A stretch of DNA of 64,000 nucleotides from a virus (lineage: Duplodnaviria > Caudoviricetes): the IMG/VR virus record IMGVR_UViG_3300033475_000013, positions 13,944 to 77,943 of that record, one strand, 5' to 3'. How positions within the stretch are numbered: position 1 is the stretch's first letter; each line of letters starts with the position of its first letter. The notes beneath the pieces were generated by a model. That model saw only the letters and a program-made list of their open reading frames with translations. It searched no databases and was not told the origin of the DNA. Of this stretch, positions 2,288 to 30,132 are shown piece after piece. The translations under genes were made by a program, and so were the position numbers.

Positions 2288-2848
2288 TTAGGCCGTTTGG
2301 CGTGCTTTATAAGTTGGTAAATCCTCACCAATCACAATAGATCTTATTGGACAGTCATCATCAGGATTGATATAACGCTGGAATAATTCAGCCTGTTCCT
2401 TGAAATATAAATCCATAACCTGAATACCAAAATCAGTAATGCCAATGGCCAACGAATCAGGCGAACTAACATACTCATAACTACCCAAACAACCTTTATC
2501 TAACAAGCCCTGAAGATAACCGCTAAACTTTGCCTTCGTCTTGAAACTACCAGTAACAATCTTAAGAAATACTGTTTTACTAATTACCTGCCTGCCTAAA
2601 TTCTCAAGCAATCCAGATAACAATAACAGACAATCAACCTCAAAGCGGTTAATACCATAAGCCTGATAAACCTTGTCACGGTAACGAACTAGTAATTGCG
2701 TTTTGTAACAACGTTGCATATGCCTCACACTTGTTTGCAAATATTCGGCCGGTGTTGGCTTAATCGTGCCAACCGTGGGTTGCGCGGTGCGCTGCGTTAC
2801 GGTGTAAGATGGAGAAATTTTAGTAGGCTTTTCTGATGATTTACCCAC
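2288..2848 (-). CDS. Hypothetical protein, possibly winged-helix DNA binding; start uncertain
   Basis: 186-aa ORF from GTG; helix-helix-wing pattern (INRFEVDCLLLL...FSGYLQGLLDKGCL...IGITDFG). Confidence 0.6.
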   Translation of the reverse strand: MGKSSEKPTKISPSYTVTQRTAQPTVGTIKPTPAEYLQTSVRHMQRCYKTQLLVRYRDKVYQAYGINRFEVDCLLLLSGLLENLGRQVISKTVFLKIVTGSFKTKAKFSGYLQGLLDKGCLGSYEYVSSPDSLAIGITDFGIQVMDLYFKEQAELFQRYINPDDDCPIRSIVIGEDLPTYKARQTA

Positions 2849-3061: not shown

Positions 3062-3364
3062 TCAGAATGGGCACCAGTTTTGGCCGTGAATGGCGATCAT
3101 ATCTTTTATCCAGTCATCTTTGGAAGCGAACGGGCTCATTAGAGGCTCGTCACGCGAAATTATTCGTGGGTAGTGTGTTTGTACGTCTGCATGGTCGATC
3201 CAAGCGGAGACGCGGTTTGAGATGAGTCGTCTGGCTTCTTTTCCGGAATCATGGATGTCGAGGTCGAGGGCTTTGATGAGTTCCTGGACGTTTGGGAGGT
3301 TCAGGATTTTGGATTGTTGCTGGTTGAGTATCATGGATTCGAAGGTAAATGAAAATATTAACAT
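3062..3364 (-). CDS. Hypothetical protein; true start probably downstream of the listed one
   Basis: ORF track, 100 aa, plausible globular composition. Confidence 0.5.
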   Translation of the reverse strand: MLIFSFTFESMILNQQQSKILNLPNVQELIKALDLDIHDSGKEARRLISNRVSAWIDHADVQTHYPRIISRDEPLMSPFASKDDWIKDMIAIHGQNWCPF

Positions 3365-3376
3365 TTGTTAATCTAC

Positions 3377-3558
3377 TATCCCGGTCTAAAATTTTATTTA
3401 TTGTTTTTTTCACCTTCCCACTGGTCACAGATACTAACTCTCCCGCCCCTTTGATATATTTCTCTAAAAAGAAATATATCTACAGGGAGTGACCGGGAGA
3501 GTTGATCAGTTGTATTCGGTTGACTCTCCCGGGATAGTCCGGGATAGTCCGGGAGAGT
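3377..3558. repeat. Cluster of CCGGGA(T/G)AGT 10-mers and nested inverted repeats
   Basis: Forward copies at 3493, 3529, 3539, 3549; inverted copies at 3377, 3437 (9/10), 3523; GATATATTTC/GAAATATATC inverted repeat at 3453-3480. Confidence 0.85.
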
Positions 3559-3633
3559 CGGGGGACTCTATCAAAAATTTGGATATTATTTCAATTTTTT
3601 GCTACTTTGAATTTCTGATTGAAATTTTTCGAA

Positions 3634-3716
3634 GTAGGACTCGAAGGATTTTGGTCTGGTTTAAATCCACCTATAGAAGCCCGAGCAGACGTCCTACACT
3701 GCCGGGTTTTTTATTT
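3634..3716 (+). promoter_or_regulatory. Structured leader with terminator-like hairpin and competing stem
   Basis: GTAGGAC (3634-40) pairs with GTCCTAC (3691-97); inner GGATTT/AAATCC; AGCCCG...CGGGTT hairpin (3678-3708) followed by a T tract just before ATG 3719. Confidence 0.5.
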
Positions 3717-3718
3717 TC

Positions 3719-4189
3719 ATGAAGAGAATCCCAATTCACTTTAAAAAAATTACTCCTGAGGTTTTAAAGGAGGCCGCAATGATTGTTGATCAAGGATCAA
3801 GAGTTCGGTTTTACAAGATTAAAAACAGCACGGTGCACAAGGTTTATATCAAAATCTTCCGGATAGATGATGATATGGATACGGAATTTATGTACCACCA
3901 TTTTGGCGGATACTATTACGTGAAGGACAGTAAGTGCATTCGTGATCAGAAGAACTACTGGCTGAACATCCAGCAGCATCGGGCTGTTCGGCTGATGCAA
4001 TTACTTCTGCCGTACCTGACGCTCAGGAAAGAGGTTGTGGAGTCTATTTTGGCTTATTATGATTCGAAGAAAAAGAATAAGAAGCGGAGATTGACGGCTG
4101 AAATGAAGGCTGAGCGGGATCAGATTTATAAAAATTACAAGGAAGCACAAGCCAGGTTTATGGAATGTGTTAAAAAATCAAAATCTTAA
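3719..4189 (+). CDS. Degenerate single-motif LAGLIDADG-fold protein
   Basis: AAMIVDQGSRV occupies the LAGLIDADG helix position; LLLPYLTLRKEVVESILAYY resembles the I-CreI-type LxPFLKLKxKQA motif; canonical acidic residues altered. Confidence 0.55.
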   Translation: MKRIPIHFKKITPEVLKEAAMIVDQGSRVRFYKIKNSTVHKVYIKIFRIDDDMDTEFMYHHFGGYYYVKDSKCIRDQKNYWLNIQQHRAVRLMQLLLPYLTLRKEVVESILAYYDSKKKNKKRRLTAEMKAERDQIYKNYKEAQARFMECVKKSKS

Positions 4190-4191
4190 TT

Positions 4192-4593
4192 ATGAAGAAC
4201 AGACAAGAACTAGCCTATATCTATGACTATTTTGGATACGCTGTTATCCATTTGAAAGGGGCTAAAGACAAACGAACTAAAGTTGAATTGTATTTTGTGA
4301 AGGATGAGAATGGTCTTTGTAACAGACTCACCATGGAAGGCTATCAATGGCGATTTAAAAATGGTTATGCTTACATGAGTGGATTAGTTGCTATTTCGTT
4401 TTTAAAAGGCATTGTTGATTTGATTCGTATAAAGCGATGTCAGGTGAAAAAGATAATTGAGTTATATGGTATGGATCAAAATCCCAAAAATAAATCCAGA
4501 AAGATTGTTCTTCGAGATGCCATTCATAAGGATAACAAGAGAACAGATCCGGTTTTGGATTACTTAAAAAGGCATAATGCGGACTTTTTTTAA
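4192..4593 (+). CDS. Second degenerate LAGLIDADG-fold protein
   Basis: ELAYIYDYFGYAVIHL at the N-terminus; FLKGIVDLIRIKRCQVKKIIELY and RDAIHKDNKR resemble the C-terminal helices of this family. Confidence 0.5.
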   Translation: MKNRQELAYIYDYFGYAVIHLKGAKDKRTKVELYFVKDENGLCNRLTMEGYQWRFKNGYAYMSGLVAISFLKGIVDLIRIKRCQVKKIIELYGMDQNPKNKSRKIVLRDAIHKDNKRTDPVLDYLKRHNADFF

Positions 4594-4641
4594 CTATCCC
4601 AATACTCCCGAATTCAAAAAACCGGGATAGTCCGGGAGAGT
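4593..4641. repeat. Second CCGGGA(T/G)AGT cluster
   Basis: CCGGGATAGTCCGGGAGAGT at 4622-4641 is identical to 3539-3558; partial inverted copy ACTATCCC at 4593-4600. Confidence 0.85.
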
Positions 4642-4671
4642 GGGACACTTGGATTGAAAGGTTAATTTTTC

Positions 4672-4679
4672 TATGTTTG
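4672..4679 (+). promoter_or_regulatory. Bacteroidota -7 promoter box
   Basis: TATGTTTG matches TAnnTTTG exactly; lies upstream of the tRNA cluster. Confidence 0.6.
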
Positions 4680-4683
4680 AGCC

Positions 4684-4758
4684 ATGAACAATAATCAATT
4701 GCATCCGCAACGACTTTTACCAGAAATTCTGGAGGTCATCGCTATGCAGTTTGGATAA
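4684..4758 (+). CDS. Possible 24-aa leader peptide
   Basis: MNNNQLHPQRLLPEILEVIAMQFG starts 4 nt after the -7 box. Confidence 0.35.
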   Translation: MNNNQLHPQRLLPEILEVIAMQFG

Positions 4759-4788
4759 GGATATACTTTTTAAACGACGCAAATGCTC

Positions 4789-4820
4789 AAAGCCTCCCTG
4801 ATCAGGAGGCTTTTTGTTTT
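4789..4820 (+). terminator. Terminator-like hairpin before the tRNAs
   Basis: AAAGCCTCC-CTGATCA-GGAGGCTTT followed by TTGTTTT. Confidence 0.6.
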
Positions 4821-4823
4821 TAT

Positions 4824-4899
4824 CAGGTATTGGGGAAGTCCGGTCGTTCCCGCCACACTTGGAATGTGGAGCTCGTTGGTTCAAATCCAGCATGCCTGA
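4824..4899 (+). tRNA. tRNA-Pro(UGG)
   Basis: Acceptor CAGGTAT/ATGCCTG; anticodon arm CCACA-ctTGGaa-TGTGG; T loop TTCAAAT. Confidence 0.9.
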
Positions 4900-5065: not shown

Positions 5066-5145
5066 GCCCCTGTGACATATGCAAACTGGCACAGCTGACG
5101 GTTTTAGACACCGTGTTTTTGAGAGTTCGATTCTCTCCAGGGGTA
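5066..5145 (+). tRNA. Atypical tRNA-Leu(UAG)
   Basis: Acceptor GCCCCTG/CAGGGGT; ACGGT-ttTAGac-ACCGT; T arm GAGAG-TTCGATT-CTCTC; 25-nt D region and 6-nt variable loop. Confidence 0.7.
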
Positions 5146-5149
5146 CAAT

Positions 5150-5223
5150 GGCTGCATGGCGAAACTGGCAGACGCGTCAGACTTAAAATCTGAATTTTAC
5201 GAGTTCGAATCTCGTTGCGGCTA
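5150..5223 (+). tRNA. tRNA-Leu(UAA) with short variable loop
   Basis: Acceptor GGCTGCA/TGCGGCT; TCAGA-ctTAAaa-TCTGA; T arm ACGAG-TTCGAAT-CTCGT; 5-nt variable loop. Confidence 0.85.
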
Positions 5224-6267
5224 CAAAAATTTCTCGATCAATGTTCTGAAAGCGAGTTCGGCTTGCTGTTCAACGACGGCATTTCCTGCCATGCGAAGAA
5301 GGTCTTCTCTAAAGTTGTACCCATTAATTGCATAACCCAGGCTGGATTCAAGACGAGGCTCTTCGAATTCGAATTGATTTGGTCCTTGTCCTGCTGGAAA
5401 AAGACTTGTCTGGGCAATTGATCGCACCGATTCCTCCCATCGCTTCTTTGCATTTCCATGCCGGCCGTGTCCTTCCAGTCGAGACTGGAAGGAGTTGTCC
5501 ATTGTCTGACTTGAACTGGTAATGCTGTTCCTCCTTGTTGAAATTTTGTTTTTCTGTTGGTTGAACTTGATAACGATGTCGTCCACTTTCTCACTGTCTC
5601 CGCCAGATATAACGGAACGGTGTTCTGGTTGGCATTTGACTTCCGATAATCCAAGCACTTCTGCAAGGTCTCCTCGTCTCTTACTCTGTTCAGAGCAGTA
5701 AGTGTCGGCCACGGCAAGGATGAAGAGACGTTTTCTAAGATGTGGCGTGCCCACTTGCTCCGCAGCGAATATGTCCGCTTCAACTTTGTAACCAAGGCTT
5801 GATATTCGTTCTCTGACTTCCTGGTATCCGATATTGAGGTGGTTTGCGACGTTTTCGAAGAAACAGAGAACAGGTCTAACTGCGTCGATTCCATGTTCAA
5901 AGAAGGGGAAGAGATGTCGTGGATCGGCGACTCCGTTCTGTAGCCCGGCTTGTGAAAATGGTTGACAAGGATATCCTCCAGTGAGGATGTGTATTTTTCG
6001 GTAAAACTGTTCGTACGGGAATGTTTTAAGATCAGTCCAGATAGGCACTGGAGCCACCATACCTTGTTCCATTTTCGCTGCCACATTGTAGGCGGCAAAG
6101 GATTCGATTTCCACAATAGCGGCATATTGGAGAATTCTAGCTTGATACATTTTTTCTCCTTGATGTGGGTACCGTAGTGCTGCAATTCCTCGTTCCAGTC
6201 CTCGATCAAGTCCACCTTGTCCGTGGCAAAGGCTGAGTGTAGCGAGTGTTTTTTCGGGATTATCCAC
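5221..6267 (-). CDS. C5-cytosine DNA methyltransferase, catalytic (alpha-like) chain
   Basis: Motif I LSLCHGQGG, IV GGYPCQPFS, VI FFENV, VIII HLRKRLFI, X LRMAGNAVV; GTG start. Confidence 0.9.
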   Translation of the reverse strand: MDNPEKTLATLSLCHGQGGLDRGLERGIAALRYPHQGEKMYQARILQYAAIVEIESFAAYNVAAKMEQGMVAPVPIWTDLKTFPYEQFYRKIHILTGGYPCQPFSQAGLQNGVADPRHLFPFFEHGIDAVRPVLCFFENVANHLNIGYQEVRERISSLGYKVEADIFAAEQVGTPHLRKRLFILAVADTYCSEQSKRRGDLAEVLGLSEVKCQPEHRSVISGGDSEKVDDIVIKFNQQKNKISTRRNSITSSSQTMDNSFQSRLEGHGRHGNAKKRWEESVRSIAQTSLFPAGQGPNQFEFEEPRLESSLGYAINGYNFREDLLRMAGNAVVEQQAELAFRTLIEKFL

Positions 6268-7833: not shown

Positions 7834-9450
7834 TCAAAAAGGCAAATCTGGATTATCTTCACTCTGTTCTTCAGTATGATTCTCCATCACAATACTCTCG
7901 CTCGGATAGGCATCAAACAAGGATGTCTGCTGCACAGCTTCAGCCATCGGTATCAACCTGCCACCTTCATCATTAATCATCAACCGCCAGGTTGCACTCG
8001 GATCATTGATCTTACCATCCTTCACAATCCATCCTTTATTTCTAAACTCACGGATGAGTTCAGCCGTCTTATGCTTGGATGTTTTAAAATTCGATTTTAT
8101 TTCTGCTGTTAATTCTCCACCTTTCAATACGCCACCATCAAAAATCTTAATGAGGATATCACGCTTGGTATCAACCTCTGTTGCTTCAGGTGCAGGAACA
8201 CCAACAATAAGCGGAAGTGAATCAGGCTTCGGACCATGCTCCAGGTAGAACGGTTCAAACTCTTCATCACGGGCACTCTCGCATTTCACCTGGGTGATGC
8301 CAGTCTTATCATCTTTATTCAGTTCGTATGTCAGCTGAGCTTTGTTGAGTAACTCCGTTCCGATGTGTCCACGCGCATTACCATCTGTCTTATTCAAATG
8401 CAGCACTTCAATAATGTGTACATTGTATTCCAGAATTAATGATTCAAGCCACACAATCAATTCAGTCGTTTCAATCGGATCATTGATGTTGTTCATCAGA
8501 TCACGCACGCCATCAATGATGATAATCTTCGGTTTATTCTTCCAGTACTTGATGGTGTACTTGATAAAATCACGACGCTCTGCCGGCGACATACCACGCA
8601 TGAAGAAGATCGGAAGTTCAATACCAGTTAGTTTTTTTAATTTCTCGCGCATGTTCCATACGTGTGACTTTCCCTGCTCAGTATCAAAACATAGTACATC
8701 ATCAGCAGTGGCTGATTTGTTCTGAAGAAAATATTGATAGACAAGCCATACTAAAAATAAAGTCTTACGTGACTTTTTCTTTCCCAGGAGCAATGAATGG
8801 TTTCCGAGTGTAGCGACAATTATTCCGAAGATGGTGATGAGAGGAATTTCTGCTGGAGGTTGTTCGGTAAGCAGGCGCGTCTTCCAGAGTTCTTTTATTT
8901 TTGATTCATTATTTTCAACTTCAATTCCATCCTGAAGAGCTTTGATGGAGTTGAGCGATGTTTCAAGAATTTCAAAAGCATCCGTAGTATCTTCGTAAGA
9001 TTGATGATGCAGCGATGATGCAATTTCAATGATGCGCCGCTTGATGGCCATCTCCACAATGACCCTGGCGTGATATTCAATATTGGAAGCAGAAGAAACT
9101 TTAGATGTTAGCTCAGCGATGTAATAAAAGCCACCAACAATTTCGAGTTTACCTGTTTTTTTAAGATGATTACCAACTGAGCGCATATCAATTGGATCTT
9201 TCTGCTGGTGCAGATCAGAGATTGCAGTATAAATTTCTTTATGCTTCTCTGCATAGAAATGTTCGGCTAATAAAAATTTTTCTGTGATTAAAAATGCATC
9301 TTTCTCCAGCATTATGCTACCAAGAACGGCTTCCTCCATCTCGATTGCCTGTGGCGGAAGCTTACCCAATGATTCACTAATGTCTCTAGGAACCAATTTC
9401 TGATTTTTCCCTTGACTCAAGCGTAATGGTGTTTCTCTTTTACCCTCCAT
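7834..9450 (-). CDS. Replicative helicase-like protein: DnaB N-terminal domain + AAA_25/RepA-type ATPase + C-terminal helical domain
   Basis: LGKLPPQAIEMEEAVLGSIML (DnaB_N); Walker A GKKKSRKT; FDTEQ; Walker B IIIDG; HLNK...RGHIGTEL; acidic DLPF tail. Confidence 0.8.
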   Translation of the reverse strand: MEGKRETPLRLSQGKNQKLVPRDISESLGKLPPQAIEMEEAVLGSIMLEKDAFLITEKFLLAEHFYAEKHKEIYTAISDLHQQKDPIDMRSVGNHLKKTGKLEIVGGFYYIAELTSKVSSASNIEYHARVIVEMAIKRRIIEIASSLHHQSYEDTTDAFEILETSLNSIKALQDGIEVENNESKIKELWKTRLLTEQPPAEIPLITIFGIIVATLGNHSLLLGKKKSRKTLFLVWLVYQYFLQNKSATADDVLCFDTEQGKSHVWNMREKLKKLTGIELPIFFMRGMSPAERRDFIKYTIKYWKNKPKIIIIDGVRDLMNNINDPIETTELIVWLESLILEYNVHIIEVLHLNKTDGNARGHIGTELLNKAQLTYELNKDDKTGITQVKCESARDEEFEPFYLEHGPKPDSLPLIVGVPAPEATEVDTKRDILIKIFDGGVLKGGELTAEIKSNFKTSKHKTAELIREFRNKGWIVKDGKINDPSATWRLMINDEGGRLIPMAEAVQQTSLFDAYPSESIVMENHTEEQSEDNPDLPF

Positions 9451-24718: not shown

Positions 24719-25261
24719 ATGTTAAAGTTTTCTGAGTTTGACGTTTGCAAACAATTCGTCCATAAAGATAAGGCAAAATTATTTTTATACCTCGAAAAGA
24801 TGTATTCGAAGGATTCGCCACTCAACAACATACAGAACCTATCCGAACGAAAACGTGCTGCATGCCTTCAAGCAAAGCTCAGCGATAAAGATCCAGAGAT
24901 GATTAAAATCATGGATTTACAGCATGAAGAGGTGAATAAATTGATTTTTGCTTACCTAGCTGAATTTCAGAATCACAACAAATACTTGAAATTATGCAGT
25001 GATCAGCAGCTTTTCTGGGACATCCAGAAGATTCTTCTGAGCCCAATCGGTGTGGAGGATGAGGATAAAATCATGGAGAAATACAAAAAAAGGGGAGATT
25101 TATCAAAGACTGCTGATGAGGTGCTGACCAGAATTAACAAATTATTCTCCGACATCTTCGCCCACGAGGACACACAAGAGATGGCACAGACAGTAATCGC
25201 CACGCAGATGTTAAGACCAGAAGATCGGGCCAGACTTAAAGAGAATGTTTCAGCAAACTAA
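24719..25261 (+). CDS. Hypothetical protein, possible terminase small subunit
   Basis: Helical 180-aa protein overlapping the TerL start; positional inference only. Confidence 0.5.
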   Translation: MLKFSEFDVCKQFVHKDKAKLFLYLEKMYSKDSPLNNIQNLSERKRAACLQAKLSDKDPEMIKIMDLQHEEVNKLIFAYLAEFQNHNKYLKLCSDQQLFWDIQKILLSPIGVEDEDKIMEKYKKRGDLSKTADEVLTRINKLFSDIFAHEDTQEMAQTVIATQMLRPEDRARLKENVSAN

Positions 25262-27386
25262 AAATGAATATCGATTTAAGTATTTAGTCACTGCGATAAC
25301 AGGTGAAGGAATTCCTTGTGTCTATCTTCCAGAAGTACCTGAAGATAAAAAAATCTTATTTACCCAGGAACAAAAATGGACACGGCCTACTGCGCCAGAT
25401 TTTATAAAGAAAGGAATCAGAGAATACGCAAAACGCGTTCAGGCTGATCCGAATTATATCCATCCACTTCAAACAGAGATAAACAGATGGGCTGATCAGG
25501 AATGGGAGCGATCAGAAAACGGAATTTGGTTTTGGAATAATGGAGTTCCAACGTACATCACTGGGTTTTATTATTGGTATCTGACGGCATGGCAGACAAC
25601 ATTCGGATTTCCTACTTACAGAGAAACGGATAAAGAATTAAGTTATTTTATAAAATATTGTGAAGAAGATCCAGATAGCTATGGAGCACTTCTAAATACT
25701 ATACGTCGTTATGGTAAGTCATCGTTTATGGGCGGATGGGCTACCTATAGAACGACACGCAATAGAAATCATTATTGTGGAATGCAGGGTGAGAACGATA
25801 AGAAGATTGGTCAGTTCTACACACAAATGATTAAATCTCCATTCAAGAAGTTGCCATATTATTACACACCAACGTATGACACTACGTCAGCTTTAACTTC
25901 AGACATAAGATTTGAGCAACCGGCAAACAGAAGTAAGACATTAATCATTGGAGATTATGATGAATCTCAGGATTTAGAATCTGTTATTGATTATAGACCA
26001 TCAGGTGTTGGTGAATATGATGGATCCATGCTTAATACTTATCTGATGGAAGAGGCAGGTAAGATTTTAAATTGTAATGTGAATGATCGATGGGCTATTG
26101 TTAAACCATGTTTACGAAAAGGTAAGGACTTACGAGGTAAGGTTTTCTTCGGCACAACGGTCGAATTTATGGATTCTTCCGGTAAGGGTGGAAAGGCATA
26201 CAAAAAATTATTCTACGAAAGTGATTTCAATCAGCGCCAACCTGACGGTAGAACCAAATCAGGACTTTATGTTTGCTTCCTTCCAGGAGATTGTGCTCAC
26301 GAAAGTTTCTTAGATAAGTGGGGACACCCGTTACGAGAAGAAGCTAAGAAATGGATATTACTTGAACGCGAATCTTATAAAGATAATCCAAAAGAACTAT
26401 CTGGATTGATCAGAAGATTCCCACTTTACATAAAAGAAATTTTCTACATCAATACTGATCGATGTGAATTCAATGCTACTATTCTTCAGGATAGAAAATC
26501 AGAATTAGAATCGATGTCAACTCCTATTCTTACCAAGGGAGAATTTTACTGGCTTGATAATAAACGATTCACTGAAGTCCGCTTCAGACATAATCCACAT
26601 ACAGGTTGGTGTTGGGTACACTCACTCATTAATGACATCAAAGAAACTAATCTTGTTCAGCGAAACATATCTTCATCTATGCCAACATTCGGCCCGATGA
26701 ATAATATGAAATTTATTTCAGGTGTCGATCCGGTGGACCATGGTGTAGTGATAGAAGGTAAAGGTGGTGATGAAGAATTTGTGAGCACACGTAGATCACG
26801 ACCTGTACTTTTTGTGAAAAGAAAATATGACTCAGCTATTGATGGAATTGTAACGCAAGAGATACTGGAGCAACGGGCAAAAGAAAAATATCAGTACAAA
26901 ACCAATCGCTACATAGCCATGATGGATGTTCGCCCAAACGATCCAAATGTTTTCTACGAGCGCGCCTTGATGATGATGTGGTATTTTGGATGTAGCCTTC
27001 ACCCTGAAAGCCAGAAGCCAGGCATTATAAATTATTTTTATGAGCAGGGATGTGGTGAATTCATCCTTAATAAATATGTGGCTGAGTCTGGTTATAAGAG
27101 AAACACCACGATGGATGGTACACCAGCAAGTCAGCCAATCATTCAGGAGTATACCGGCGCACTGGCTACTTACGTTGAATATTTTGGGCATACTATTCCT
27201 TTCATTGATCTGGTTATTGATCTTTTGGAATTTACCCCGAAGAAGACCACTGAGTATGACTACTCGGTAGCAGCAGGATTCACCGAACTTGGTGGTAAAA
27301 TACAGCCCAAGACGTACACGCAGCCTATGGTTGATATCCATGATTTCATGCCCGGATTCGATGAATATGGCAACGTTGTTAATTAA
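25245..27386 (+). CDS. terL: Terminase large subunit
   Basis: Walker A RRYGKS, Walker B LMEEAGK, GTT coupling motif, nuclease GVDPVD; precedes the portal. Confidence 0.9.
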   Translation: MFQQTKNEYRFKYLVTAITGEGIPCVYLPEVPEDKKILFTQEQKWTRPTAPDFIKKGIREYAKRVQADPNYIHPLQTEINRWADQEWERSENGIWFWNNGVPTYITGFYYWYLTAWQTTFGFPTYRETDKELSYFIKYCEEDPDSYGALLNTIRRYGKSSFMGGWATYRTTRNRNHYCGMQGENDKKIGQFYTQMIKSPFKKLPYYYTPTYDTTSALTSDIRFEQPANRSKTLIIGDYDESQDLESVIDYRPSGVGEYDGSMLNTYLMEEAGKILNCNVNDRWAIVKPCLRKGKDLRGKVFFGTTVEFMDSSGKGGKAYKKLFYESDFNQRQPDGRTKSGLYVCFLPGDCAHESFLDKWGHPLREEAKKWILLERESYKDNPKELSGLIRRFPLYIKEIFYINTDRCEFNATILQDRKSELESMSTPILTKGEFYWLDNKRFTEVRFRHNPHTGWCWVHSLINDIKETNLVQRNISSSMPTFGPMNNMKFISGVDPVDHGVVIEGKGGDEEFVSTRRSRPVLFVKRKYDSAIDGIVTQEILEQRAKEKYQYKTNRYIAMMDVRPNDPNVFYERALMMMWYFGCSLHPESQKPGIINYFYEQGCGEFILNKYVAESGYKRNTTMDGTPASQPIIQEYTGALATYVEYFGHTIPFIDLVIDLLEFTPKKTTEYDYSVAAGFTELGGKIQPKTYTQPMVDIHDFMPGFDEYGNVVN

Positions 27387-27421
27387 TCACTATTTTTGAT
27401 TAACATTTCCAACTCTACAGT

Positions 27422-27736
27422 ATGGCTAAAGAGAATCTCAGAAAGACAATGGAACAGGTTTTAGAAAATGCTCCAGAGCCAGAAATCAATCAAGAACATG
27501 TCAATGACTGGCATACTGCAAAATCAGCAGAAGCATTTAAGACCATTCACCGGGATTTAAGCGCAGAAAGGATTGGTACTTTTAATATACGAGCCGCCAT
27601 CTCCGCACCAAAGTCTATCAAATATCGTCAGATGGCAATTGATTGGGAAGGTGGTAATCGTGGAGATTACATCTTTATGGATGCCAGTGGAAATAAAATG
27701 ATACTTCCATACAAACTTTTTAAACGATTATTTTGA
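27422..27736 (+). CDS. Hypothetical protein (104 aa)
   Basis: ORF track; between TerL and portal. Confidence 0.7.
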   Translation: MAKENLRKTMEQVLENAPEPEINQEHVNDWHTAKSAEAFKTIHRDLSAERIGTFNIRAAISAPKSIKYRQMAIDWEGGNRGDYIFMDASGNKMILPYKLFKRLF

Positions 27737-30132
27737 TGGATCCACTGACCAATCTTAGTAATACCAGACTTGTAGATTCTTCCTTCGCCACGAAGGGGTC
27801 AACATTTCCAAACGAATTTGTATCGCCATTAATAAAAGAACTTCCGGAGTATGGCGCCATGTATGCCAAAAGCATCTATGCTGCCAGCGGAAGATTTGGA
27901 GGATATGTGTTTTGGAATGATACTGAATATCAAGCTTTACTTGAGGTATCACAAGGTCGGCAGAGTATTGATAAGCTCAGGAACATGTTCGGCTTCTTCC
28001 GGGAGAATAAAACTGATCCTTTAGATGATGGTTCTTCAAGTCTTGCCTATCTGGATATCCAGGTTTTAAATCTGGCACCAAAATACGTTAATCGGGCAGT
28101 GGCGAAGATAATGAACCTAGAATATGATGTCCAGCTTGAGGCTGTAGACTCTGTTTCGGTACATGAAAAGAAACAATATGAAGCCAATCTTCAGGCTTTT
28201 TATGAATTCAGAGGTTGGCTTGATGATCTTAAGATAAGCCCAAAAGAACTATTTCCTGATCTGGATATTGATATTTTACCAGAATATCCAGATGAATTGA
28301 TGTATGAGATGCTCACCAATCCAAAGATGCAGAAGGCCATCGATGGTGAAGAGGCGCTTACATTGATGCAGCAGATCAATGACTTTAATCAGAAAATGCG
28401 CATGATGGTGCATGATAAAGTCGTTTATGGTCGTGGGCACATCCATTGTTACCGGGATGAGAATGGGATACCGAGAATTGATCACATCAATCCAAAATAT
28501 TATGTCGGTAGCTATGTGGAGGATGAGAACTTTGAGGGACAGGAGTATGCCGGATTCTTTGATTTCCCAACCGTAAGCCAGTTTCGGAAAGAAGCATCGG
28601 GTTATTTAACCGATGAAGAGATTGAAGAAATTGTTCAGAAGTATGCGTACATGAACAATATTCAGACAACCTATAGCCCACTCCGGGCCAATCAAAAATT
28701 CGATGGACTGAATTATATTCCTGTTTTACGCTTTTATTTCCTAAGCCAGGATGACCGGGTATTTGTAAAGCGAAATAACAAAAATGGCAATCCAACCATT
28801 TTTGAGCGTAGTTTAGGATGGAAGCCAAGTGAAGATGATCCAAGATTTGGTCAAGATGGAGATTCAGACATAATCCGCAATTCATATACCAGTGTCTATG
28901 GCGGCACCTGGATATTGGATAGTGATCTGGTGTATAACTATGGTAAAAAGGAATATCCACGTTCTAATCTTGTTGATCTTACCTTGCCAATAAAAACTTT
29001 CGCTCCACTTTACAAAGAAGGAAGAACGGTGAGTTTCTGCGCACAGATGATTGAGCCATTGTTTATGATCAATGTGGCATGGAATAAAATCAAGCAGATT
29101 TTAGCGCAAGGATTCATGGGCGTGCAGGAAATTGATTTTACTCAGTTGGAGAAAGTAGCGTTAGGTAAAGGTGGTCAAGCATGGACACCACGTGAAGTTT
29201 ACAAGCATTTCCTGCAAACCGGCAGATTAATCAAGAGATCGCCAGTTAATAAATATGATCAACAGTACTCTGGTAGTGCTGTTGAGGCTGGACAGACCGG
29301 ATTACAAATGAGTGATTATTTGAGTGTCCTAACTACTGGCATCAATATGCTTGAGCAGTTGACAGGAACTACAGTGGCTGAATCTACCCAGATGCCAGAT
29401 AGACTTCCTGTTCGTGTAATGGAGCAATCCCAGGCAACAGGTGATCTTGATATGGAATATCTTTTTAATTCATACACCTACATGTATCGCGCTGTTTGCA
29501 CACAATTACTCGGGATGGTGCAGCAGGCTAAGCGTGATGGAATTGGAATTGCGGGATTTATTCCTTCTCTGGGTAAACACGTTACTGTTTCCGATCGGAT
29601 TGCGCTTTGTGATTATGGATTGTTTTTGGTTAAGTCACCTAGCGGAGCTGAATGGCAATCGCTTTGGGATGATCTACAGATTGGTCTTCAAAATGGAACA
29701 CTTACTCATCTTGATGTGGCGTACATTAAGGATATAAAGAATCTGAAGAAAGCTCGTCAGATACTTGGAATCAGGGTTAAGGTTAATGAGCGTAAGGCTG
29801 CGCAAATTAATGCGATGAATCAGAAAGCGGCCATGGATGCCAATCGTGCGGCAGCTGCTGATAAGGCTCAGGGAGAACTTTATAGCCTTCAGGCGAAGGG
29901 ACATATTGATGAGGATTTGATCAAACTTAAGGGGCAGATCGATGAGCACATTATGGTTTGTGATAATGAACTGAAAGCTGCGATGAATGATAAAACCAAT
30001 CTGGTTAAACAGCAGATCGCCAAACAAACCAGTGTGGATGAGATTATTAAGAAGTCAGTTGAGAATAAAGCTAAATATGCTCAGGTTGCCGCAAAGGAAC
30101 GTAGTGATAAAGAAAAATCAGATTCTAAATGA
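27733..30132 (+). CDS. Portal protein (crAss-like)
   Basis: 799 aa after TerL; ILNLAPKYVN...helical core; long C-terminal coiled-coil barrel. Confidence 0.8.
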   Translation: MMDPLTNLSNTRLVDSSFATKGSTFPNEFVSPLIKELPEYGAMYAKSIYAASGRFGGYVFWNDTEYQALLEVSQGRQSIDKLRNMFGFFRENKTDPLDDGSSSLAYLDIQVLNLAPKYVNRAVAKIMNLEYDVQLEAVDSVSVHEKKQYEANLQAFYEFRGWLDDLKISPKELFPDLDIDILPEYPDELMYEMLTNPKMQKAIDGEEALTLMQQINDFNQKMRMMVHDKVVYGRGHIHCYRDENGIPRIDHINPKYYVGSYVEDENFEGQEYAGFFDFPTVSQFRKEASGYLTDEEIEEIVQKYAYMNNIQTTYSPLRANQKFDGLNYIPVLRFYFLSQDDRVFVKRNNKNGNPTIFERSLGWKPSEDDPRFGQDGDSDIIRNSYTSVYGGTWILDSDLVYNYGKKEYPRSNLVDLTLPIKTFAPLYKEGRTVSFCAQMIEPLFMINVAWNKIKQILAQGFMGVQEIDFTQLEKVALGKGGQAWTPREVYKHFLQTGRLIKRSPVNKYDQQYSGSAVEAGQTGLQMSDYLSVLTTGINMLEQLTGTTVAESTQMPDRLPVRVMEQSQATGDLDMEYLFNSYTYMYRAVCTQLLGMVQQAKRDGIGIAGFIPSLGKHVTVSDRIALCDYGLFLVKSPSGAEWQSLWDDLQIGLQNGTLTHLDVAYIKDIKNLKKARQILGIRVKVNERKAAQINAMNQKAAMDANRAAAADKAQGELYSLQAKGHIDEDLIKLKGQIDEHIMVCDNELKAAMNDKTNLVKQQIAKQTSVDEIIKKSVENKAKYAQVAAKERSDKEKSDSK

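Follow-up and report, generated by a model that had tools for sequence, protein, structure and literature searches.

A nuclease-dead I-CreI-type protein, lineage-specific iterons and a structured leader RNA form a conserved, putative early-control module in uncultured tailed phages

The locus described here lies in a 64-kb stretch of viral DNA (hereafter the window; 64,000 nt of IMG/VR record IMGVR_UViG_3300033475_000013, corresponding to bases 6970-70969 of the 77,957-bp contig C497), in which two adjacent open reading frames (ORFs), ORF1 and ORF2, are preceded by a predicted leader RNA and bracketed by clusters of a short repeat, CCGGGAKAGT, referred to below as the iteron (Table 1). The whole case is based on sequence comparison and predicted structures. 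Eight exact matches to the iteron occur in the window where 0.10 are expected (100 dinucleotide shuffles, largest count 1), and together with degenerate copies they all cluster around the two ORFs. This bears out an earlier reading of the sequence (the original prediction), which had counted about ten copies in both orientations and whose positions hold overall, save that the copy placed at 3377 actually occupies 3375-3384. Five copies are of the T type and five of the G type. No further exact copy is found on the 78-kb contig, and the 6.85-Mb bin to which the contig was assigned holds just nine single copies, scattered. The array at 3529-3563 is the best-scoring tandem repeat of the window, each of the two tandem iteron pairs is trailed by a degenerate copy, and in the 16-bp palindrome in the right arm of the left cluster a minus copy and a plus copy overlap. 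The 20-bp direct repeat reported to flank both ORFs (3539-3558 = 4622-4641) is real and exact, but it is made up of two adjacent iterons out of about eleven; a pattern search of IMG/VR with this 20-mer gave 0 matches.

Table 1. Features of the module in the window, with the leader RNAs and repeats of related loci
Feature	Locus	Position	Strand	Details
MarR-like winged-helix gene, 186 aa	window	2288-2848	-	AlphaFold2 model and Foldseek
100-aa ORF, first gene of leftward operon	window	3062-3364	-	homologues in L009 and L016 only; no family match
Left arm, left cluster	window	3375-3446	-	copies 3375-3384 (exact), 3437-3446 (1 mismatch)
AT-rich 28-bp palindrome, centre of left cluster	window	3453-3480		12/13 arm positions match
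Right arm, left cluster	window	3493-3569	+	3493(+); 16-bp palindrome 3523-3538; tandem 3539, 3549; degenerate 3559-3569
Exact CCGGGAKAGT copies	window	3375(-), 3493(+), 3523(-), 3529(+), 3539(+), 3549(+), 4622(+), 4632(+)		motif search
Promoter-like elements, rightward transcript	window	3579-3609	+	TTTG 3579-3582, TACTTTG 3603-3609; read from sequence
Leader RNA	window	3620-3718	+	hairpin H1 3621-3652 (loop 3633-3640), small hairpin H2, terminator 3675-3711 (loop 3689-3698), U-run into ATG
ORF1, 156 aa, single-domain I-CreI-type LAGLIDADG protein	window	3719-4189	+	profile match, predicted fold, structure comparison
ORF2, 133 aa, probable highly diverged LAGLIDADG-like paralogue	window	4192-4593	+	weak matches; starts 2 nt past ORF1 stop
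Right cluster	window	4593-4649		4593-4602(-), 2 mismatches; degenerate minus near 4604; tandem plus 4622, 4632; degenerate 4642-4649
Leader RNA	relatives	L009 5900-6000; L010 358-459; L011 3897-4000; L012 3121-3223; L016 1542-1643; L019 2326-2433; L021 323-421		
Repeat	window			CCGGGAKAGT
Repeat	L009			CCGGGAAGGTT
Repeat	L010/17/18			CCATTAGAGTT
Repeat	L011			YATGACAGTT
Repeat	L012-14			CCATKACAGTT
Repeat	L015			GGTRGGTT
Repeat	L016			CAGGACACT
Repeat	L019			AGGAGAGTT
Repeat	L020			GGTCAGT
Repeat	L021			CGGGGGACT
Repeat	L023			GTAGTCRC

Several approaches place ORF1 among the LAGLIDADG proteins of the I-CreI type. A profile built from 25 members of the family aligns over the full length with I-CreI chains (E 1e-3) and with a single-chain I-CreI (1e-6). 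The AlphaFold2 model of ORF1, with a predicted local distance difference test score (pLDDT) of 95.3 and a predicted template modelling score of 0.88, has its helices (H) and strands (E) in the order H-E-E-H-E-E-H; Foldseek matches it in the PDB to I-MsoI and I-CreI with prob 1.0, and VIA-align superimposes it on I-CreI with Z 14.1 and a root-mean-square deviation (rmsd) of 2.7 A over 129 residues, and on I-MsoI with Z 13.4. Among viral models, the closest folds are those of phage LAGLIDADG endonucleases. In the profile alignment, Gly26 of ORF1 occupies the position of the catalytic Asp20 of I-CreI, a column which across the family is unconserved, holding Q, G, H, N, K, Y, E, V, R, F or D. The claim that ORF1 is LAGLIDADG-like is thus upheld by profile, model and both structure comparisons, the loss of the catalytic acid is seen in the profile alignment, and the combination of an I-CreI-type fold with glycine at the Asp20 position argues that ORF1 is a nuclease-dead I-CreI-type domain. 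The protein forms one domain closing in a long helix, shows neither a helix-turn-helix (HTH) nor a Pfam match to WhiA, and is encoded neither in an intron nor in an intein. Both ORF1 and ORF2 are strongly basic, with isoelectric points of 9.8 and 9.7. Since homologues align from residue 1-10, the ATG at 3719 is favoured over a shorter gene call.

Annotation by existing families is sparse. Neither ORF1 nor ORF2 has a match in Pfam, one of the 25 family members reaches LAGLIDADG_1 (at 9.8e-6), and PHROGs yields phrog_5046 alone, at 1e-4 and under the label 'HNH endonuclease'. When 1.84 billion representatives were scanned in full with HMMER (E up to 1e-3), 39 relatives of ORF1 emerged, a tiny family whose members are mostly 140-190 aa long, with a few of ~300-350 aa that contain two matched stretches; the weakest matches are canonical two-motif LAGLIDADG proteins with their D/E motifs intact. 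No member of the family occurs in 400 host-phylum genomes, in INPHARED or in a pattern scan of IMG/VR, which argues for a clade-specific phage function as opposed to a roaming element, and DNA and protein searches of isolated phages found no relative of the module. Two of these distant matches, P0027 and P0035, are of the canonical two-motif kind, retain the acidic residues and are extended at the N terminus by an HTH-like stretch; they may be active relatives of the family.

The related loci compared in this work are the contigs of 13 family members. Wherever the sequence suffices (13 lineages), the LAGLIDADG-like gene runs on the other strand from the genes next to it, at 1.7-3.7 kb from dnaB, even though the phages are only 25-45% identical in this protein. 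A single gene is present in L009, L010/17/18, L015, L016, L019 and L024, whereas the window and L011 have two, and L012-14 and L021 one fused two-domain gene. An obligatory heterodimer of ORF1 and ORF2, as once envisaged, is as such not a general property of the module.

ORF2 is probably a degenerate LAGLIDADG paralogue, to judge from repeated weak matches, all of which fall on residues ~55-113, the beta4-alpha4-alpha5 part of the fold. It matches ORF1 at E 0.012, I-MsoI at 0.12, the hidden Markov model (HMM) of the family at 0.006-0.011, the family by hhalign at 0.0016 (probability 16%), and an HMM of the 'second domains' at 1e-4 (canonical relatives, 3.5e-5 in the six-sequence set). Furthermore, its position is that of the second gene of L011 (family HMM 1.7e-7) and of the second domain in the fused proteins. 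These matches are what survives of the proposal that ORF2 keeps LAGLIDADG-type motifs; no confident match or model was obtained. A homologue search with ORF2 detected none, BLASTP found no match to the second gene of L011, the MAFFT alignment with family members is unconvincing, and the ESM Atlas model, with a pLDDT of 0.35, is not confident. Where the D-G-D-G stretch is expected, ORF2 reads, by eye, G-Y-A-V.

In 12 of the 13 lineages a k-mer-enriched 10-11-mer of the lineage's own surrounds the LAGLIDADG-like gene. These repeats differ from lineage to lineage yet align in one register around ..GGAnAGTT.., and almost all copies at each locus fall between ~800 bp upstream of the gene and ~400 bp downstream, bracketing it on both sides in the window, L009, L010/17/18, L012-14, L016, L019 and L021. 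L011 and L012 have a third cluster beside dnaB, ~25 nt ahead of the start of another gene, and L015 has one at 5913-5932. Two iteron variants of comparable frequency occur in 3/4 two-domain systems as against 2/5 of the others, numbers too few to count. Independent distribution of genes and repeats among relatives had been named as an outcome that would speak against the proposal; instead the two travel together in every related lineage examined, as is predicted by a domesticated sequence-specific binder with co-evolving sites. The suggestion of such a domesticated binder for the iterons accordingly gains from the dead fold and from lineage-specific repeats that accompany the gene.

L024 stands apart in that an 8-mer count shows no outstanding repeat; a GTTTAA-type unit upstream of its gene was read by eye. 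This contig also carries a TTTTAGTTTGCG-type 12-mer at about nine minus-strand gene boundaries (190, 458, 839, 1272, 1689, 2177, 3326, 5947 and 7272), which probably serves these phage genes as a promoter or in some other regulatory role and is unrelated to the iterons.

In the left cluster of most lineages, a palindrome that is not itself built of iterons, usually AT-rich with a TATAT core, sits between two iteron arms. For the five closest lineages, minus orientation is seen in 12 of 14 copies on its left and plus orientation in 17 of 20 on its right (Fisher p 7e-5), an opposed bias that makes the arms mirror images. The right arm typically begins with an inverted pair, which forms a 16-bp palindrome in the window, L009 and L016; head-to-tail copies repeating every 10-11 bp follow. 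The cluster 3' of the gene is a miniature of the same design, with one copy at the stop codon followed by one to three in the opposite orientation; in the window the iteron at 4593-4602 overlaps the stop of ORF2, and a small cluster at or just past the stop codon is also found in L009, L010/L017, L012/L014, L016 and L019.

Between the right arm and ORF1 lie promoter-like elements, of which TACTTTG is one base short of TAnnTTTG, a box that we take to be the Bacteroidota -7 consensus; in 6 of 8 loci a perfect TAnnTTTG starts 16-20 nt before the first hairpin of a leader RNA. In eight lineages this leader is ~95-105 nt long and folds alone into a 5' hairpin (H1), a small second hairpin (H2) and a GC-rich terminator whose U-run reaches the ATG. 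The terminator hairpin is conserved with compensatory changes and was alone recovered by RNAalifold from the MAFFT alignment; as the first hairpin is misaligned there, loop-loop pairing was scored per sequence instead. Between the apical loops of H1 and of the terminator there is, in each of the eight lineages, a perfect Watson-Crick complementarity of 7-8 nt with a different sequence every time (bases 3634-3640 with 3691-3697 in the window), a length of pairing that shuffled terminator loops reach in 0.14-3% of trials per lineage. Given that both partners are apical loops, the pairing is read as a loop-loop interaction, and since a linker of 1-2 nt separates the paired loop from the terminator stem, the 7-bp loop helix and the closed terminator should exclude each other. 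From this mutual exclusion we infer that the leader likely acts as an antiterminator.

The Rfam trpB motif (RF04312) aligns with the full length of the leader in the window (27.0 bits) and in L016 (32.4 bits), scores below its gathering threshold of 59, and no match to it is found in the other loci; membership of this family was consequently not counted. That the leader is a new structured RNA, absent from Rfam at threshold, is well supported by the comparison of the eight sequences, and it stands as such independently of the question of what binds the iterons. The layout of a hairpin followed by a terminator is shared with terminator riboswitch candidates such as the trpB motif, and the pairing of a 5' hairpin loop with a distant complement near the start of the controlled gene is shared with the loop-loop or pseudoknot control of rep in IncB and IncI-alpha plasmids. 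In contrast to both, it is the terminator's own apical loop that the first loop pairs with here, and there is no sign of an antisense RNA. In phage homing endonuclease genes, an RNA hairpin just before the start codon limits expression.

Immediately after the right iteron pair, at 4671-4678, there is another perfect TAnnTTTG box. The ~130 nt that follow fold better than shuffles (z -3.6), with a strong terminator at 4789-4813 just before the gene for tRNA-Pro, and the stretch 4671-4824, which holds a 24-codon ORF, may be a second small RNA or leader.

The reading that we favour, with a probability of roughly 0.45, is that these elements constitute a conserved early-control module of an uncultured clade of ~75-kb tailed phages, in which the dead LAGLIDADG protein would bind the iterons and control early transcription, the origin of replication, or both. 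The lineage-specific 10-11-bp iterons, in two mirror arms about the AT-rich palindrome, would serve as binding sites that the protein recognizes sequence-specifically through its beta-sheet saddle without cutting, as a homodimer in the single-gene lineages and probably as an ORF1/ORF2 pair in the phage of the window. So bound, the protein would repress or organise the divergent early promoters, its own included, and may mark the replication origin. The promoter by the right arm would drive a ~95-nt leader ending in a terminator directly before the start codon, and this leader would throttle synthesis of the protein, most transcripts stopping at the terminator and the pairing of the H1 and terminator loops setting the extent of read-through. 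The placement of iterons at or over promoter boxes and before other genes, along with the precedents of WhiA and I-TevI, argues for transcriptional control; points in favour of an origin are the mirror arms about the AT-rich palindrome, the bracketing of the gene by iterons, the proximity of dnaB and the want of a recognisable initiator.

Known relatives of the fold lend this reading some of its content. I-CreI, I-MsoI and I-CvuI are single-motif homodimeric LAGLIDADG homing endonucleases of 23S rDNA introns, and the ORF1 protein shares with them its size, a profile-level match and the fold along its whole length (127-130 residues superimposed with Z 12.6-14.1 and rmsd 2.5-3.0 A), while the ORF1 family retains the small residues of the LAGLIDADG helix and the GG-Y and P-Y-L-x-x-K motifs; the core of the iteron also resembles their ..GAcAGTT.. 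half-site. Unlike these enzymes, which have one 22-bp target, the module presents many short direct and inverted sites, and its gene, free of intron and intein and fixed in position throughout the phage clade, encodes in the window a glycine at the equivalent of Asp20, a position that is unconserved in the family. Two defining features of a homing endonuclease, the catalytic acid and mobility (residence in an intron or intein, or a patchy spread among close relatives), are thus missing in spite of the I-CreI-type fold. With I-TevI, a protein of homing-endonuclease type that represses its own synthesis by binding near its own promoter, the differences are that I-TevI is an active GIY-YIG nuclease with one operator and has neither iteron arrays nor a kissing-loop leader. 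WhiA (DUF199) combines a LAGLIDADG fold that has lost its catalytic acids with gene regulation, including that of its own gene (PMC3384342), and the likeness that we propose lies in this domesticated fold and regulatory role. WhiA, however, is a cellular protein of Gram-positives with two LAGLIDADG domains and a C-terminal HTH, to which much of the DNA reading falls, whereas the phages of the module have a single domain, two genes or a fusion, no HTH, and iteron arrays.

That the LAGLIDADG protein is itself the iteron binder we would rate, on the comparisons made here, a little short of an even bet. In its favour, the gene is bracketed by iterons even in 3'-to-3' spacers, where no promoter is expected, ORF1 and ORF2 are both basic, the iteron core is similar to the I-CreI/I-MsoI half-site, and I-CreI D20N still binds DNA without cutting it (crystal complex 1t9i). 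The 16-bp palindromes of the window, L009 and L016 place the ..GGAnAGT.. half-site in the register from the dyad seen in I-CreI and I-MsoI sites, and the L011 iteron is identical to I-MsoI positions +3 to +10/+11. Several considerations weigh on the other side. The family-wide iteron matrix does not match the I-CreI/I-MsoI site significantly, 8% of random 24-mers doing equally well (p ~0.08). Canonical LAGLIDADG dimers cover ~22 bp, so that 10-bp head-to-tail iterons cannot all be filled. The inverted pairs of L010 and L012 have 6-9 bp more than the I-CreI geometry, and the distance between the iterons of different lineages correlates with the distance between their MarR-like proteins at r 0.54 as compared with 0.11 for their LAGLIDADG-like proteins (8 lineages, distances saturated). 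Last, the LAGLIDADG domain of WhiA need not be its DNA-reading part (PMC3384342).

The last two observations also count for the MarR-like protein, which we consider a less probable iteron binder. In this alternative it would bind the iterons and regulate the divergent promoters, and the dead LAGLIDADG protein would have another job, such as protein contacts or binding of the leader RNA. LAGLIDADG maturases do bind RNA. The AlphaFold2 model of the MarR-like protein (7-sequence alignment; pLDDT 73, core 83-94) is matched by Foldseek to MarR, AbfR, MepR and MexR with prob 1.0, E 5e-4 to 4e-3 and target TM-scores of 0.5-0.7, in keeping with the winged helix between dimerisation helices that marks the MarR family. 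Its seven members have no Pfam match up to E 1, a profile found no PDB match, and a profile search for further homologues returned already known proteins only. Every locus with enough sequence to show it has a homologue in the corresponding position, and it is the sole other gene conserved in all loci; since the gene is never absent where it would be visible, presence and absence cannot separate the two candidate binders. Its orientation, divergent from an intergenic region filled with sites, is the classical MarR arrangement, and the 16-bp palindromes would suit a MarR dimer. Nevertheless, the separate central AT-rich palindrome would be a more natural operator for such a dimer, one or two other genes usually lie between the MarR-like gene and the sites, and neither the tandem head-to-tail arrays nor the second cluster, which is always found behind the LAGLIDADG gene and in L009 and L019 in a 3'-to-3' spacer, is explained. 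What remains of the probability falls to both proteins together, or neither, binding the iterons.

A further alternative, which we regard as doubtful, overlaps the favoured early-control reading and differs from it in downstream function only: the module would be the phage replication origin, where a LAGLIDADG initiator melts the DNA at the iteron arms around the palindrome and recruits DnaB, with the downstream cluster acting like P1 incA, F incC or P4 crr. The mirrored arms described above, the proximity of dnaB in all loci, the absence of a recognisable initiator among the neighbours and the tight gating of the gene at the RNA level are all consistent with it. The gene is flanked by repeat arrays with direct and inverted copies, as replication-initiator genes are, and in P1 incC-repA-incA, F incB-repE-incC and P4 ori/crr a gene bracketed by such repeats is likewise accompanied by an AT-rich element and tight expression. 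The likeness is, however, one of layout alone: those replicons use initiators of the WH1-WH2 (paired winged-helix) or primase-helicase type and iterons of 19-22 bp, whereas ORF1 has a LAGLIDADG fold, for which no initiator is known, and its iterons are 10-11 bp. The iterons are, moreover, placed as operators would be: those of L010 and L019 overlap promoter boxes, and L011 and L012 have copies directly ahead of other genes. GC skew, which had been put forward as an indicator of origin or terminus, merely follows gene strand across the window and says nothing on the origin. The fuller version, in which the dead I-CreI-like protein would represent a new structural class of replication initiator, with iterons at the origin and in a control cluster and a kissing-loop leader setting its dosage, strikes us as rather improbable.

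That the repeats are packaging (pac/cos) or partition sites for a terminase small subunit or a ParB-like protein is very unlikely: clustered short repeats are typical of such sites, but the genes for the terminase large subunit and portal (25245-30132) are ~21 kb away, the conserved neighbourhood contains no ParA- or ParB-like gene, and the repeats are consistently associated with the LAGLIDADG/MarR pair. Insertion of a mobile homing-endonuclease cassette with duplication of a 20-bp target, proposed on account of the exact flanking repeat and now able to cite the fold as well, is ruled out for practical purposes, given that the 20-mer is two of many iteron copies, the active site is dead and its acid unconserved in the family, the same dnaB-proximal synteny recurs in 13 diverged lineages each with different repeats, homing makes no target duplications, and no relative with an empty site was seen.

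Domesticated LAGLIDADG proteins that bind DNA without cutting are, to our knowledge, known mainly from WhiA, and a full-text literature search found no paper linking LAGLIDADG proteins with iterons and none describing such a phage module. The module offers a bare I-CreI-type domain kept at one place across a phage clade, together with arrays of short sites that vary by lineage. Were the LAGLIDADG domain the binder, these phages would provide a natural series of specificity changes in a scaffold used for meganuclease engineering, and a missing early regulator or origin-binding protein of uncultured Bacteroidota-type phages would be identified; were it an initiator, a homing endonuclease would have become a protein that binds origins and that evolved its site specificity anew in each phage lineage.

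The contig itself ends in a 141-bp terminal direct repeat, which indicates a complete, circularly assembled genome, and had been binned into a 6.85-Mb metagenome-assembled genome (623 contigs) of similar GC. In addition to the terminase and portal it encodes a DnaB-type helicase (7834-9450), RecT and four tRNAs, and no tyrosine integrase was found on it; by this gene content it is a tailed phage. ORF1, ORF2 and the tRNA genes form a small plus-strand island within a minus-strand block of early and replication genes. A DNA-modification gene adjoins the module in six lineages, encoding a C5 methylase in the window (5221-6267) and L009 (6759-8177), an N6/N4 methylase in L011 (4989-6026), Dam in L021 (1398-1898) and a protein like 3'-phosphoadenosine 5'-phosphosulfate (PAPS) reductase in L015 (4822-5700) and L024 (5784-6662); as CCGG occurs within the iterons of the window, L009 and L021, methylation-sensitive binding is conceivable. 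Between tRNA-His and tRNA-Leu, the stretch 5075-5145 gives a weak tRNA-like match (Rfam 20.4 bits) that was not called by ARAGORN, and shares 82% identity with a segment of Rhizobium phage RHph_I1_18 that carries no annotation.

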